From Eledone cirrhosa (Eukaryota), in contig OZ024765.1 of assembly GCA_964016885.1 (NCBI GenBank), positions 11,842,001-11,906,000 on the forward strand: a stretch of DNA of 64,000 nucleotides, read 5' to 3'. Positions within the stretch are counted from its first letter, which is position 1. Each line of letters opens with the position of its first letter. The notes beneath the pieces are model-generated. The model was not told where the DNA came from, did not search any database, and was given only the letters and a program-made list of their open reading frames with translations. The translations under genes were made by a program, and so were the position numbers. Positions 1,441 through 55,755 of this stretch are shown one piece after another.

Positions 1441-2149
1441 ATATATGTATATGTTTATATTTGTGTGTGTGTGATTATATATATATATGACACAGCTAAG
1501 GTCAACACTAGGAGAGAAAGAAAGAAAACTACAGACAAAAATGTGAACTGTTCTCCCTATATATATATGTATGTAAAGAAAATGTTTTCCCATATTCTTA
1601 TTGTTCTTATTAATATACAATTTAATTGCATTATACACTTCTGTCGTATGAAGAGGCCTACAAGCTGAAACAGGTACAAATAATGTGGAAATTCCTATTT
1701 TGTAAATAAATGTTTTGCTATTATTCTGAGAGAAAATCCCTTTAGCATTTTCTACTGTTTTTTTTTTCTTTTTTACTATTATATAAATATATATATATAT
1801 TGTAGGTCGACTTTGCTTGCCCACAGCCAAAGCTTCGATTTTACTAAGCTTCCAATAGTGTGTATGTATATATATATATATCATAGATTTAGTTAGAAAC
1901 TCAAAAATAGTCGTGTAATATAACTCAAAAAGAGCCGTGTAATATAATTGTGTATATGTATATATATATGTGAGAAAAACCACAGACCCTCCATCTCAAC
2001 TCTACTTTTGAAAAGCAGAAGAACTGCGAAACCGGTAAAGGAACCAAATAAATATATATATTTTTTAAAAAAATAAGACTCCAGTTGCATTTTTGATTTC
2101 ATCTTTTTTTCTTTATACTTTCACTCGTGTAGGACACCTCGGTTATTTT

Positions 2150-2742
2150 TCATTTTGTAAAAAGCTGGACTAATCTTCTTTAACCATCCTTGGAAACTCT
2201 TTGAGATAGTACCTAGTGCTCCTATGACAACCGGGACGACCTTGATCTCATAACAGTCCCAAATCCTTTTTAACTCCCACTTTAAATCCTCAAATCGGTT
2301 AATTTTCTCCCTCTCCTTCTCTTGCACTCTTGTGTCAAAGGGACAGGCTACATCTACAATCAGGCATGATCTTTTTTCCTTGTCAAAAACCAACAGGTCA
2401 GACCTATTGTGTTCTAATTTCTTGTCCGTCTGTATCCTGAAATCCCACAGCACCTTCACCTGATCGTTTTCTATCCCTGACTCTGGCTTATGCTCATACC
2501 ACTTCTCAGAATGTGGTAAATTGTTTACTCTGCATAGATACCAGTGAATCACCTTTCCTGTTATATCATGTCTCCAGCCATTATAGTGAGTCTGGGCTAG
2601 CTGTTTACACTCGGATACAATGTGAGCCACAATTTCCTCTCTCTTTCTTTCCACAGATCCTACACAGTGAGCTAGCCTCCTCCTTGTCAATATGGTGTTT
2701 CACCCACTTCGTTCTGAGGGCCTGCTCTTGCGCAGCCATTAA
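2150..2742 (-). pseudogene. Non-LTR retrotransposon relic, R4/Dong-like: CCHC zinc knuckle plus restriction-like endonuclease
   Basis: Translation reads LMAAQEQALRTKWVKHHIDKEEASSLCRICGKK, frameshift, EIVAHIVSEC...WRHD...LWDFRIQTDKKLEHNRSDLLVFD...IVDVACPFD...VVPVVIGALGT. The typical NRPD motif appears as NRSD. The 5' junction abuts (TAA)n. Confidence 0.85.
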
Positions 2743-2859
2743 TCATTATTATTATTATTATTATTATTATAATCTGTTGTTGTTTCCTTTTGTATTTCAA
2801 TTGTGAATTCCCCTCCACCCCCACCCCAGTATCTTGGGATCTTGTGTCCAATATAATAA

Positions 2860-6513: not shown

Positions 6514-6585
6514 GATGTGTTAGTGTAAATGGTAGTACAGTGGTCCGGATAACCAAAGATGTGGGGTCGACTCCCATGTACGTCA
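6514..6585 (+). pseudogene. 72-nt tRNA-like cloverleaf (degenerate tRNA or tRNA-derived head)
   Basis: Acceptor gatgtgt/gtacgtc, D arm gtgt/gtac, anticodon arm tggt-ccggata-acca, T arm gtggg-gtcgact-cccat, T-run about 10 nt downstream. Lacks U33, purine 37 and a TTC T-loop. Confidence 0.55.
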
Positions 6586-11045: not shown

Positions 11046-11383
11046 ATCATCATCATTTCATTTTACGTCCGCTTTTCCCTGCTTGCAAGGGTGGGATGGG
11101 AACTGATTCTGGCTTGATTTCTACAGCTGGATGCCCTTCCTAACACCAACCTCATTTACAGTGAGTGCTGGGTGCTTTTTTGCCGTGGCACCTCAACGAC
11201 CACTTTGCAGTGGAATGATAGGGACCCCAGTCCCTATCATCTCATTTCTACAGCTGAGTAAACTGGAGCAATGTGAAATAAAGTGTCTTGCTCAAGGAAA
11301 CAACACATCACCCGGTCTGAGAATTGAACTTACAACCTTTCGATTGCAAAGCCAATGCTCTAACCACTAACCCATGTGCCTCC
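11046..11383 (-). mobile_element. SINE family B, full length
   Basis: Near-identical to 6708-7047 and 46040-46376. Confidence 0.85.
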
Positions 11384-11690
11384 ATATATATATAATAATA
11401 ATAATATTATTTATCCTTATATATACACTATATATAATTATAAACAGGAAAGGTCAGCACTCTTTCTATACACTTGTACTGCTAATATCCTCATTTTGTG
11501 AGTAACTTTCTTCTTTAATTCCTCTATAATTGTTGTATTATTCTTTTATAACGTTTGTTGTATCTACTGATACTGACCACATCATCTTCACTCTTTAAAT
11601 ATGACACTGTTAATGACAACAATAAGATCTATGTAGCTTTACGATTGTTCTGTGGAATAGGAGGTTAATTATATGTCTAAACTTTGCGAG

Positions 11691-11737
11691 TGCTCTGATG
11701 ATTCCAAACGAAAGTTTGGAAGAAACGATTGTCAGCA
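11691..11737 (+). ncRNA. Minimal type I hammerhead ribozyme candidate (family H2)
   Basis: tgct-CTGATGA-ttccaaac-gaaa-gtttggaa-GAAA-cgattg-TC-agca. Perfect 8-bp stem II with a GAAA tetraloop, GUC cleavage triplet, AATAAA immediately downstream. Confidence 0.75.
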
Positions 11738-11843
11738 ATAAAATGTTTTGAACATAGTTTTGATTATTCTGTAACTTATATATATATATATATATATAGT
11801 AATAATAATAAAATTGAAGACTAAATCCAAAGAGGGCTCGATA

Positions 11844-11898
11844 AGAGTTTCAGAAGATCCTGTTAAGGGTGAAAGCAGCGATTCTTTGCTTAAACTTT
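11844..11898 (+). ncRNA. Degenerate hammerhead-like motif (family H5)
   Basis: agagttt-CAGAAGA-tcc-tgttaa-gggt-GAAA-gca...tgc-TT-aaacttt. Core U4 is changed to A. Confidence 0.4.
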
Positions 11899-11959
11899 AA
11901 TCTGTTATTTTAATAAATATATATATATATAAATCATCATCATCATCATTTTATGTCTG

Positions 11960-16521: not shown

Positions 16522-16524
16522 TTG

Positions 16525-17697
16525 CACAAGGTCAGCAATTACCCCAGTGCGTGACTGGTACTTTATTTTATCAACCCCTTAAGGATGAAAGGCAAAGTTA
16601 ACCTCGGCGGGATTTGAACTCAGACCATAAAGGGCCGTAACTATGCGTCAAGGCATGGGGTCCGACCCTCTACCGATACTGCCAATTCACTATAATAATA
16701 ATTGTTTCTGCTTTTGGCACAAGGCCAGTAATTACTGGTACTTTATTTTATCAACCCTGCAAGGATGGAAGGCAAAGTCAACTTTGGTGGGATTTGAACT
16801 CAGTACGTAAAGGGCCTTAACTCTATGCAGCAAAGCATGTTGTCCAGCACTCTATTGAAATAATAATAATAGTTGTTTCTATTTTTGGCACATGGCCAGT
16901 AATTACCCGTGTATTACTGGTACTTTATTTTATGAACCCTGTAAGGATGGAAGGCAAAGTCAACTTTGGTGGGATTTGAACTCAGTATGTAAAGGGCCTT
17001 AACTCTATGCAGCAAAGCATGTTGTCCAACACTCTATTGAAATAATAATAATAGTTGTTTCTATTTTTGGCACATGGCCAGCAATTACCCAGTTCATTAC
17101 TGGTACTTTATTTTATCGACCCCGTAAGGATGAAAGGCAAAGTCTACCTCGGCGGGATTTGAACTCAGATCGTAAAGGGACGTAACTATGCTGGAAAGCA
17201 TGGCGCCCGACCCTCTACTGATACTGCCAATCCACTCTAGTGAAATAATAATAATAGTTGTTTCTATTTTTGGCACAAGGCCAGTAATTACGCCAGTGTA
17301 TTACTGGTACTTTATTTTATCAACTCTGTAAGGATGGAAGGCAAAGTCAACTTTGGTGGGATTTTAACTCAGTACGTAAAGGGCCTTAACTCTATGCAGC
17401 AAAGCATGTTGTCCAGCACTCTATTGAAATAATAATTGTTTCTACTTTAGGCACACGGCCAGCAATTACCCAGTGCATTACTGGTACTTTATTGAACTCT
17501 ATTAAAATAATAGTTGTTTCTATTTTTGGAACAAGGCCAGCAATTACCCCAGTGTATTACTGGTACTTTATTTTATCGACCCCGTAAGAATGAATTGCAA
17601 AGCTAAGTTCGGTGGAATTTGAACTGAGAACATACGGGACGATATCTCGATGTCGCTAAGCATAGTGTCCGACGCTCTACCGATTCTGCCAATCCAA
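16525..17697 (-). mobile_element. Cluster of ~7 tandem SINE-A copies and subfamily variants
   Basis: Repeated ttgtttct...ggcacaaggccag...ctggtactttattttatc...gatttgaactcag units, separated by aataataat. Confidence 0.85.
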
Positions 17698-25841: not shown

Positions 25842-26104
25842 TATTGTTATACTTTGGGAGGGTCATACATATATGTATATATATGTATATATACATATAT
25901 GTATATATATGTATATATACATATATGTATACATATATATATACATATATGTATACATATATATACATATGTGTATGCATATATATATATACATATGCAT
26001 ATATACACATATATGGATACATATAAGTAAAAATATATATACATATCTATATATATATATATATATATTAATTTTGCTTTGTCGGTTCACCACTGGATAG
26101 AAAT

Positions 26105-26690
26105 AATTATTCCCCCTTTTGGCACAAGGCCAGCACTTATCCCAGTACATTACTGGTACTTTATTTTATCGACCCCGTAAGGATGAAAGGTAAAGTTTAC
26201 CATGGTGGGATTTGAACTCAGATCGGAAAGGGACGAAACTCTATGCTGCAACGCATGGCGTCTGACCCTCTTCTGATGTTGCCAATCAGCAAAAATAATT
26301 GTTTCTACTTTTGGCACAAGGCCAGCAATTACCCAGTGCATTACTGGTACTTTTATTTTATCGACCCCGTAAGGATGAAAGGCAAAGTCAACCTCGGCGG
26401 GATTTGAACTCAGATCGTAAAGGGACGTAACTCTATGCTGGAAAGCATGGCGTCCGACCCTCTACCGATACTGGCAATCCACCGCAAAAATAATTGTTTC
26501 TACTTTAGGCACAAGGCCAGCAATTACCCAGTGCATTACTGGTACTTTTATTTTATCGACCCCGTAAGGATGAAAGGCAAAGTCAACCTCGGCGGGATTT
26601 GAACTCAGGTCGTAAAGGGACGTAACTCTATGCTGGAAAGCATGGCGACCGACCCTCTACCGATACTGCCAATACACCGCAAAAATAATG
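26105..26690 (-). mobile_element. Three tandem SINE-A copies (~190-bp period)
   Basis: Units separated by gcaaaaataat; copies 2 and 3 are near-identical. Confidence 0.85.
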
Positions 26691-32450: not shown

Positions 32451-33160
32451 CGATAAAATAAAGTACCAGTAATACACTCGGACAATTGCTGGCCTTGTGC
32501 CTAAAGTAGAAACAATTATTATTTTACAGGGTCAATAAAATAAAGTACCAGTAATACACTCGGACAATTGCTGGCCTTGTGCCTAAAGTAGAAACAATTA
32601 TTATTTTACAGGGTCAATAAAATAAAGTACCAGTAATACACTCGGACAATTGCTGGCCTAAAGTAGAAACAATTATTATTTTACAGGGTCAATAAAATAA
32701 AGTACCAGTAATACACTCGGACAATTGCTGGCCTTGTGCCTAAAGTAGAAACAATTATTATTTTACAGGGTCAATAAAATAAAGTACCAGTAATACACTC
32801 GGACAATTGCTGGCCTTGTGCCTAAAGTAGAAACAATTATTATTTTACAGGGTCAATAAAATAAAGTACCAGTAATACACTCGGACAATTGCTGGCCTTG
32901 TGCCTAAAGTAGAAACAATTATTATTTTACAGGGTCAATAAAATAAAGTACCAGTTAATACACTCGGACAATTGCTGGCCTAAAGTAGAAACAATTATTA
33001 TTTTACAGGGTCAATAAAATAAAGTACCAGTAATACACTCGGACAATTGCTGGCCTTGTGCCTAAAGTAGAAACAATTATTATTTTACAGGGTCAATAAA
33101 ATAAAGTACCAGTAATACACTCGGACAATTGCTGGCCTTGTGCCCAAAGTAGAAACAATT
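32450..33160 (+). repeat. 82-bp tandem array (~9 copies) derived from the SINE-A 3' half
   Basis: acagggtcaataaaataaagtaccagtaatacactcggacaattgctggccttgtgcctaaagtagaaacaattattatttt. Unit starts at 32526, 32608, 32683, 32765, 32847, 32929, 33005 and 33087. Confidence 0.95.
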
Positions 33161-33439
33161 GTTGTTTTGTCCATGTTTTTTTGTGTTTGCAGCTCGTAAA
33201 TTAAGTCTATCTTAATGGCCATAACGAGTGTTTAAGTAAGATACTTTAATATAACTCCTCTCTTCTCCTCATAGTCTTAAGATGACAGAGGGAAGTGGGA
33301 GTGGGGAGGTGGGGAAGGGGACCTGACAGAGGGAAGTGGCAGTGGGGAGGAGGGGGGAAGGGGACCTCGTTGATAGATAATTTAAATGTTTCCACTAACG
33401 AATGTGAAATCTATTTTCAATCTAGACACTAACATTCAA

Positions 33440-44247: not shown

Positions 44248-44284
<37 letters not shown>

Positions 44285-44318
44285 CACATGAATCAAAGTT
44301 CTGTTCAAACCATTTATT

Positions 44319-44365
44319 AGCTTACAATTGTTTCGTCCAAACCGAGGTTTGGAGTCTTCGGAGCA
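44319..44365 (-). ncRNA. Minimal hammerhead candidate (family H2, second copy)
   Basis: Minus strand reads tgct-CCGAAGA-c-tccaaac-ctcg-gtttgga-c-GAAA-caattg-TA-agct-aataaa. Downstream flank homologous to 11738-11770. Confidence 0.6.
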
Positions 44366-44629
44366 ATTTTTCAATGATTGTTTACATACATGACCTCCTT
44401 TCCAACACAAGAGACATACAGAAACATATGTATATATCGATGCACAGTGGGGTGACATCCATTGTAATATTTTAGCATGGCAATTTACATTCAAAAATTA
44501 AAATCATATTAAAAGAAAATTAAAACAAAATTAAAGTTAAAATACAACATCGGCAGTTTACGAAGGGTTTAAAATATATATAACTATAAAAAGTTTTAGT
44601 ATATACATAACCATAAATAGTATCCTTAA

Positions 44630-44659
<30 letters not shown>

Positions 44660-44878: not shown

Positions 44879-45389
44879 TATATGTACTGTAAGATTTATA
44901 ATCTTTGAAGTTATAATGTAATGTACACATATATAATATTCATGTATATAATAAAACTGTGTGAACCTAATATAAATGTGTAATGTTGCCTCCTGTGTTT
45001 TATATATATATATAGTTATTATAACTATTAAGCTCTGTTACCTACATAGAGCACTCTTTTTTCCTGGACTTTTCCGACGATGTTTATATATGCATGTATA
45101 TATATATATATACATATATATGGTGGCTGCCAACTCGTTTTCGAGTACGGCCACTACTTTATATCCATGTAGGAGAACCCCTACCGATGCGCTGAACGAA
45201 TGTGACTTTTTAGTCCAGCCAGCGACTTGAAAACTCTGGTACAAAGACTACACTTGTGACCATTATTGACACATAGTGCAGGGCCCATGGTACCATGTGA
45301 TGACAAGTGCAGAGAGATCTCCAGATATAAAGCAATGCCTGTGCTGTGAAGCTTTTATAGTGAGCAAAGGCACTGCACAAAGCCAGTCC

Positions 45390-55326: not shown

Positions 55327-55755
55327 TATGAGAGAGAGCTAGAGAGAGAGAGAGAAGGAGGGCAGGTGTTGTTTCCAAACGTTCCCAAAAGATGTGATCG
55401 GATCACATGCAATCACATTGGATCACATCGGATGAGATGAGAAGAAATCAAAATCAAATCAAATCAATAACTCTCGTTTTTCTATTTTCATATTGAAATC
55501 GATAATGAATTCAGATTAGGTAGATGGGAGGGTGACGGAAGGAGTTGGGGGCTATTGGGTAAACAGAAGATTGGGTGAGCAGGTAGATAGGGGTAAAGTG
55601 AAGATACAGAGCTGTAGGAAGGTATGTGATACACGTTAGAGGGGTGAAAGGGGTGAAATTGGGTAGGGAACTGTTTTAAGCAAAAAACAATTTGCAAATA
55701 AAATTTACAAATAAAATTTTGTTTAAAATAATTCAGTGTATAAATATACACACAC

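Follow-up and report, generated by a model that had tools for sequence, protein, structure and literature searches.

The window, a stretch of 64,000 nucleotides from Eledone cirrhosa, is microsatellite-rich animal DNA with 179 tandem-repeat rows and a G+C content between 19 and 52%. On its forward strand a compact hammerhead motif (11691-11742) lies near the 3' end of a dispersed repeat unit of about 380 nt (11395-11776, forward strand, 5' edge approximate), which has 29% G+C and no notable reading frame. An initial annotation had described this motif as an intact CUGAUGA and GAAA core with an 8-bp stem II, a GUC site, a 4-bp stem I and a following AATAAA. Read directly from the sequence, every one of these elements sits where it had been placed, and the anatomy is confirmed letter by letter.

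Stem I is formed by 4 bp (11691-11694 with 11734-11737). The first core strand, C3 to A9, reads CUGAUGA (11695-11701); its position 4 corresponds to 11696 and is occupied by C in most copies of the family. Stem II (11702-11709/11714-11721) consists of 8 Watson-Crick pairs closed by a GAAA loop, and the second core strand, G12 to A15.1, is GAAA (11722-11725). In the monomer form helix III (11725-11732) contains 2 bp, A15.1-U16.1 and C15.2-G16.2, and a 4-nt loop GAUU. The GUC ends with C17 at 11733, on the 3' side of which the scissile bond is predicted by hammerhead numbering, and AATAAA (11737-11742), a possible poly(A) signal, has its first A in common with the last base of stem I. With helices of 4, 8 and 2 bp and the open ends in stem I, the motif has a type I layout, and the type I pattern CUGANGA...GAAA...UH is found in it. 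Folding predicts in addition an extension of stem I past an internal loop, whose 5' strand (11672-11685) pairs with approximately 11742-11756. The base of stem II is the pair U10.1-A11.1 (11702/11721), to which the folding assigns a probability of 0.38, against 0.83-1.0 for the inner seven pairs. No hammerhead model of Rfam matched at the gathering score, nor at E values up to 10 over 11400-11900.

A second, diverged copy of the repeat unit is located on the reverse strand at 44280-44632, flanked by a (TA)14 tract on each side. The alignment of the two copies runs from (TA)n tract to (TA)n tract (11395-11776 with 44632-44280), and (TA)n is found on both sides of both of them. At 11691 the 5' side is a short (AT)n tract followed by (TAA)n (11384-11394, from sequence and alignment), and the (TA)n tract at the 3' end (11777-11798) is the likely insertion target. 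A 5' terminal block (11400-11453, forward strand) is common to both copies, as indicated by read letters and a contig joint: 4 of the 9 read-derived alternative letters listed for 11407-11438 equal the letter of the second copy, and one contig of run X1 joins 11453 to 11674. The 3' tail (11738-11776, forward strand) is of fixed length, the (TA)n of each copy starting 43 nt past the cleavage site. Identity between the copies is 77% in the ribozyme, 64% in the tail, 61% in the 5' block and 51-58% in the remainder between; the homology of the upstream and middle parts is not significant alone, as 21 of 300 shuffles reach its score. Reads and contigs of runs X1 and X7 cover the unit in its entirety, and the ribozyme lies under hundreds of reads. 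Thus the hammerhead is, as the initial annotation had proposed, the motif of a repeat family, with one further copy in the window and many related copies in the sequencing runs.

The hammerhead of the second copy (44365-44319, reverse strand) has the core CCGAAGA, a C.C mismatch at 10.1/11.1 and a GUA site, so that the pair G10.1-C11.1 is absent from both copies. The inner seven pairs of its stem II are identical to those at 11691, while all four loop letters differ. As regards a tertiary contact between loop I and loop II, the predicted extension of stem I contains an internal loop, and loop II agrees at none of its 4 positions between the copies. The 8 nt at 11725-11732 are self-complementary with two G-U wobbles and could form an 8-bp helix between two copies (-5.8 kcal/mol), and the counterpart in the second copy is a perfect palindrome (-6.4 kcal/mol). 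Positions 15.2-16.2 with loop III are thus palindromic, and 8 of 8 pairs are possible for a dimer helix in both copies; in the predicted monomer fold helix III is not populated. The nearest family member lies 32.6 kb away on the opposite strand, which leaves the motif with no second copy in cis, and according to the tandem-repeat listing of the window no tandem array covers either copy; both are solitary. The second copy is enclosed by an inverted repeat of 93 nt (44120-44212/44649-44741, 88% complementary), whose arms end on (TA)n. The arrangement is one of nested insertions into one microsatellite.

We also looked for further motifs of this kind, using a descriptor composed of the exact core, stem II, a self-complementary helix III and a stem I of at least 4 bp. 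It matched five times in the window and not once in any of 200 dinucleotide shuffles (500-nt blocks), a control which is generous because the descriptor was written after the motif had been seen. With one core change allowed there are seven matches in all, including the second copy (44365-44319, reverse strand) and a doubtful match at 55429, which was left out; six motifs were compared. Among these, as judged by the letters alone, the copy at 11691-11742 is the only one whose core is canonical, whose site is GUC and whose stem II has no break. Within the ribozyme the two copies of the family differ at 9 of the 12 positions left free by the hammerhead model and, among the 35 that are paired or belong to the core, at 2 (Fisher P = 8e-6). 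Core and paired positions have been spared between the copies, and therefore the fold was under selection in the history of the family.

[quoted passage not shown] Its members share the core CUGAUGA, the pair A10.1-U11.1, a stem II whose fourth pair is a pyrimidine mismatch, an 8-nt palindromic helix III, an AUA site, an 8-bp stem I and a tail of 38-52 nt, followed by (TA)n. A single hammerhead-like motif at 256-223 (reverse strand) has an 8-bp stem I, GUC, a 10-nt palindromic helix III and A.A at 10.1/11.1; the unit around it is bounded by long terminal inverted repeats, seen by eye at about 495-390 and 210-100. Not far downstream of the family motif, the repeat at 11846-11905 (forward strand) has, in runs X1 and X7, a depth several times that of the hammerhead. 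It contains CAGAAGA, a short hairpin with U.U at its base and GAAA, resembling a core with A at position 4; there is no helix III, and the reads restore the hairpin at 11861.

The state of core position 4 was followed in four sequencing runs (X1, X5, X6 and X7), which were aligned to 11400-11910 at 80% likeness. They belong to a set of nine, six of which contain part of the stretch; none of the nine is recorded as RNA, which has no bearing on expression. X1 (contigs) and X7 (RAD reads) carry the same organism label, and X6 carries another one. C is found at 11696 in 466 of 507 X7 reads from 56 start places, in 86 X1 contigs amounting to 17,378 of 17,939 depth units (97%), in the single X5 contig and in the second copy of the window. 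The core of the family is therefore CCGAUGA, and the canonical U4 of the copy at 11691-11742 is a minority state within its family. Among the 40 strongest of 88 variant rows no alternative letter is given for 11697-11745, hence none for 11702 or 11721, and U10.1-A11.1, the GAAA loop and the GUC appear to be the majority state. The U-A pair at 10.1/11.1, which the initial annotation had noted as the one deviation of the motif, is present as described. It is unlikely to be a defect peculiar to this copy, since the rows just mentioned give no other letter there and since in Hydra-clade hammerheads a pair different from G-C is common at this place.

Over 11400-11777 this copy carries at least 27 minority letters, in comparison to the X7 majority and among the variants listed, and 11395-11776 is therefore a decayed copy. 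At 11 positions both X1 and X7 show another letter at 80% or more, and seven of these changes are C>T or G>A. Four of the seven, 11696 included, lie at CpG, where 14%, the share of C or G sites that lie in CpG, would be expected (binomial P = 0.009). The canonical core of this copy was thus probably produced by CpG deamination, which turned CCGA into CTGA. Instead of decay at this locus, the T at 11696 could mark a small sub-lineage that regained the canonical core and spread. C is lacking in 3% of the X1 depth and in 41 of the 507 X7 reads, as such a sub-lineage would require, but independent CpG decay predicts the same share. One X6 contig, which differs from 11644-11767 at 2 of 124 nt (98% identity), also has T at 11696, and T is therefore either older than this assembly at the locus or shared by a small sub-lineage; however, this contig may stem from the corresponding locus of a relative. 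The X5 contig shares the minority letters of this copy upstream and would belong to the same sub-lineage, yet it has C at 11696, and other CpGs of this copy were lost too. We therefore regard the spread of a sub-lineage as unlikely.

Concerning the origin of the unit, we consider it likely that the type I hammerhead at 11691-11742 belongs to the 3' end region of a repeat of about 380 nt, solitary and decayed, which would be a non-coding, (TA)n-targeting PLE derivative whose ribozyme would cut as a dimer and is predicted to be nearly silent alone. The observed bases of this reading are the (TA)n flanks, the fixed 43-nt tail and the many related copies in the sequencing runs. Neither copy contains a reverse transcriptase (RT) or GIY-YIG frame when read by eye, and a Pfam scan of 150 of the 168 complex open frames of the window revealed no RT and no GIY-YIG. 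Three frames had any match at E up to 0.01, one of them a C2H2 finger fragment and two below threshold; the scan is weak because it also missed the evident retroelement fragment at 2124-2699. From the architecture of a unit that has no PLE reading frame, a link to PLEs is nevertheless likely.

PLE hammerheads are described as combining a long helix II with a short helix I and a palindrome in helix III, and most of them occur singly and dispersed (PMC4209133). The likeness to the pLTR hammerheads in that article extends to the length of helix II (7-8 bp there, 8 here) and of helix I (4-5 bp there, 4 here), to the palindromic helix III, to the mostly single dispersed copies and to the dimer model, which is also found in a review citing Lunse et al. 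(PMC6765202). In its Fig. S3 a palindromic loop III of 3-4 nt is also seen in the rows of D. willistoni and Hydra, whose helix II apparently has U.U at its base. In contrast to our motif, the pLTR hammerheads have an extra base after A9 and a G10.1-C11.1 pair, and C4 occurs in 0 of the 56 rows of the same figure (PMC4209133). This absence of C4 from the published rows is partly by construction, because the descriptors used there fixed the core.

The closest architecture, by analogy, is that of the Hydra clade of PLEs. As described in PMC8557442, the hammerheads of this clade are likewise type I motifs near the 3' end with a short tail, which measures 43 nt here and about 36 and 46 nt past the site in the two consensus ends that were counted, and nearly all of its families insert at (TA)n. 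Counted by eye in its File S2, helix III begins with AC and ends with GT in all 26 Hydra-clade rows, and 10.1/11.1 is not G-C in 19 of them. The motif at 11691 has the same AC...GT with a self-complementary middle, and the same single base on each side at 10.1/11.1, often non-G-C in the clade. Differences are seen in position 4 (U in 26 of 26 rows, C in the family described here), in the length of helix III (9-10 nt there, 8 nt here), in stem II, which is longer here than in most rows, and in the coding frame, which the copies of the window lack (PMC8557442). Membership of the clade is defined by a single ORF with an RT (RWK and DKT motifs) plus, at its C terminus, a GIY-YIG without CCHH (PMC8557442). 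Because the clade is defined by its protein and our copies have no ORF, the claim is that the unit works like the end of a Hydra-type PLE and not that it is a Hydra element.

An Octopus family, Hydra-1_oBim (also Hydra-1_Obim), is listed in the Hydra clade, and its hammerhead sequence differs from the motif at 11691 (PMC8557442). Identity with published Octopus PLEs was accordingly rejected, short motifs of our family being absent from the text of the supplement of PMC8557442, in which line breaks may hide a match. A faint likeness of the first 16 bases of Hydra-1_oBim to the 5' block was considered too short and too AT-rich to count. Pattern matches to stem II in metagenomes were taken as chance as well, since at 0 of the 31 loci a CUGANGA or CCGANGA core was seen by eye directly upstream.

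Under the preferred PLE-type reading, the source element would have been transcribed in tandem, and two motifs of such a transcript would pair through the palindrome at 11725-11732, giving an 8-bp helix III and a cut after position 17. Cleavage of the dimer is proposed to be slowed by C4 and by the lack of G-C at 10.1/11.1. RNA that stayed uncut or was re-joined would then be reverse-transcribed by a PLE protein with RT and endonuclease acting in trans, and be inserted at (TA)n; uncut or re-joined RNA is proposed as template because the copies hold both sides of the site. After insertion the copy would have decayed, with CpG deamination in CCGA yielding the textbook CUGA.

The unit could instead represent a single non-LTR retrozyme monomer; such a 380-nt repeat would occur elsewhere in tandem arrays and be expressed as circular RNA. 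Such units are non-coding and AT-rich and hold one type I hammerhead; in mussels they measure 350-390 bp and their hammerheads, too, are described without the usual tertiary letters (PMC7229834). The length of our unit, its mollusc host, its low G+C and the 5' end which both copies seem to share would fit. Solo monomers are moreover common, and retrozymes have been argued to derive from PLE ends (bioRxiv 10.64898/2026.07.22.740005), so that this explanation shades into that of a PLE derivative. However, retrozymes are described as tandem repeats (150-450 bp), each with a hammerhead, that give linear and circular RNA (PMC7229834), whereas the two copies of the window stand alone, and their distance from the site to the terminal (TA)n is identical. 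Among the joints listed none connects the 3' tail to the 5' end, the reads stopping at the (TA)n tract, and a helix II of 8 bp with a helix I of 4 bp fits the PLE motifs and not the canonical form of 4 and 6 bp. A retrozyme origin is thus improbable, and we continue with the PLE derivative.

The initial annotation had also ranked the motif as the best candidate for activity in the window, and in favour of this ranking stands its combination of canonical core, GUC and unbroken stem II. We do not uphold it: the core is a minority state, the copy is decayed, the core is predicted to pair with the cleavage site and no second copy exists in cis. In the predicted monomer the G5-C17 pair has a probability of 0.97 when the 47-nt core is folded by itself, of 0.94 for 11670-11760 and of 0.26 for the complete unit. 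For this motif, the core is free and stem I shut with a probability of 0.0013-0.0024, compared to 0.013-0.049 for the three motifs of the second family, 0.004-0.015 for the second copy and 0.0001 for the motif at 256. A full monomer hammerhead fold reaches 0.0002-0.0003 here and stays below 1% for all six motifs. Relative to the best dimer fold, the double hammerhead is less stable by 2.0 kcal/mol, against 4.9 kcal/mol for the monomer. Nearest-neighbour folding takes account of neither tertiary contacts nor Mg2+ and indicates activity only weakly. U4 as the cause of the misfold was dropped, since it shifts the register and leaves the chance of a free core unchanged: with C4 substituted, G5-C17 has a probability of 0.39 in comparison to 0.97 with U4, and the free-core probability of 0.0022 is not raised.

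From these models the lone copy at 11691 is predicted to cut poorly and is probably silent. That it acts instead as a ribozyme which cuts its transcript at C11733 as a monomer, beside a poly(A) signal, is in our opinion very improbable. Canonical core, GUC, 8-bp stem II and the predicted extension of stem I would suit such an activity, and the stretch 11697-11745 has none of the majority differences listed, against 27 over the 378 nt covered (P ~0.03). An axolotl hammerhead with a 2-bp helix III, a tetraloop and U.U as the basal pair of helix II cut 22% in one hour as a monomer (PMC7229834). Against monomer activity stand the predicted pairing of core and cleavage site, the stem I of just 4 bp, the decay of the copy with loss of CpG, and the surroundings, in which no gene was recognised near the repeat in the Pfam scan of 150 of the 168 complex open frames. 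In addition, the minimal PLE hammerhead for which results are given in PMC4209133 showed no cleavage as a monomer and low cleavage as a dimer or trimer. The dimer construct, which the initial annotation had included as a test, is the right one for this motif. X7 read ends at 11667/11670 were rejected as RNA ends; they correspond to the AATT restriction site of the RAD library and are DNA ends. Finally, a chance hairpin beside chance core words in AT-rich repeat DNA would agree with the lack of an Rfam hammerhead match even at E = 10 and with a predicted monomer fold that is not a hammerhead, but we give it virtually no credence, as it is already refuted by the shuffle control, where 0 of 200 shuffles contain any such motif, and by changes between the copies that spare core and stems.

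AATAAA is present in the second copy too, one base further on. It follows the cleavage site in four of the six motifs (the two copies plus two members of the second family, which has three), and these represent two families and not four independent cases; 3.2% of 20-nt stretches of comparable AT-rich DNA contain it. A role in polyadenylation is plausible. AATAAA was not accepted as a proven poly(A) signal, as it could equally be the 3' side of the internal loop of stem I.

Other repeats are frequent in the window. A SINE-like stretch (11060-11383) lies directly upstream of the hammerhead repeat, has a near-identical copy at 1424-1214 (reverse strand) and is a possible source of read-through transcription. 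Tandem arrays of one SINE-like family with periods of 82-204 are found at 560-874, 16524-17572, 26101-26689 and 32453-33168, and a tRNA-like match (6514-6585, forward strand, 33.4 bits) adjoins a (TA)n tract and is possibly the head of a tRNA-derived SINE. The region 2124-2800 (reverse strand) holds the 3' end of a non-LTR retroelement, recognised by eye from a Cys/His finger and a restriction-like endonuclease stretch and without Pfam match, which we take to be R4/Dong-like. One C2H2 zinc-finger fragment is encoded at 45184-45354 (reverse strand; Pfam E = 2.6e-5, just below the curated cut-off).

PLE hammerheads number thousands per invertebrate genome, and one more copy is ordinary in itself. 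The copy which looks most perfect is canonical most likely through CpG decay, and a clean core is therefore no sign of function, which is a caution for the search for such motifs. The new point is a modest one: the kind of element is already known, and what is added is a C4 core throughout the family together with a base pair of stem II that is not G-C. Exceptions to G10.1-C11.1 have been published, and a U.U mismatch at 10.1/11.1 exists in nature. In the literature we found no C4 hammerhead family described in PLEs or cephalopods, and U4C for a viroid only; a prior description is possible. In the viroid, as cited in PMC3088659, the same core change that the family shows at 11696 considerably lowered activity in vitro and was yet sufficient in vivo. 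There, however, it is a rare variant of a monomer-active ribozyme with tertiary contacts, whereas here it is the majority state of a many-copy family (PMC3088659).

Tentatively, therefore, a many-copy animal retroelement may have been amplified with a CCGAUGA (U4C) core and without G10.1-C11.1, its stems and palindrome being kept under selection; we regard this as possible, with the odds rather against it. If true, the cleavage of C4 hammerheads in dimer form would be sufficient, or else selection in PLE-type elements favoured weak cutting, by which the 3' tail required for insertion would be preserved. Such families would then have escaped descriptor searches that demand CUGANGA. The role of hammerheads in PLEs is stated to be unclear in PMC8557442. 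A family with a C4 majority and with stems conserved between diverged copies allows C4 and U4 to be compared directly, as monomer and as dimer, and the copies decayed to CUGA would provide natural C4/U4 pairs for testing what the hammerheads of PLEs are for.
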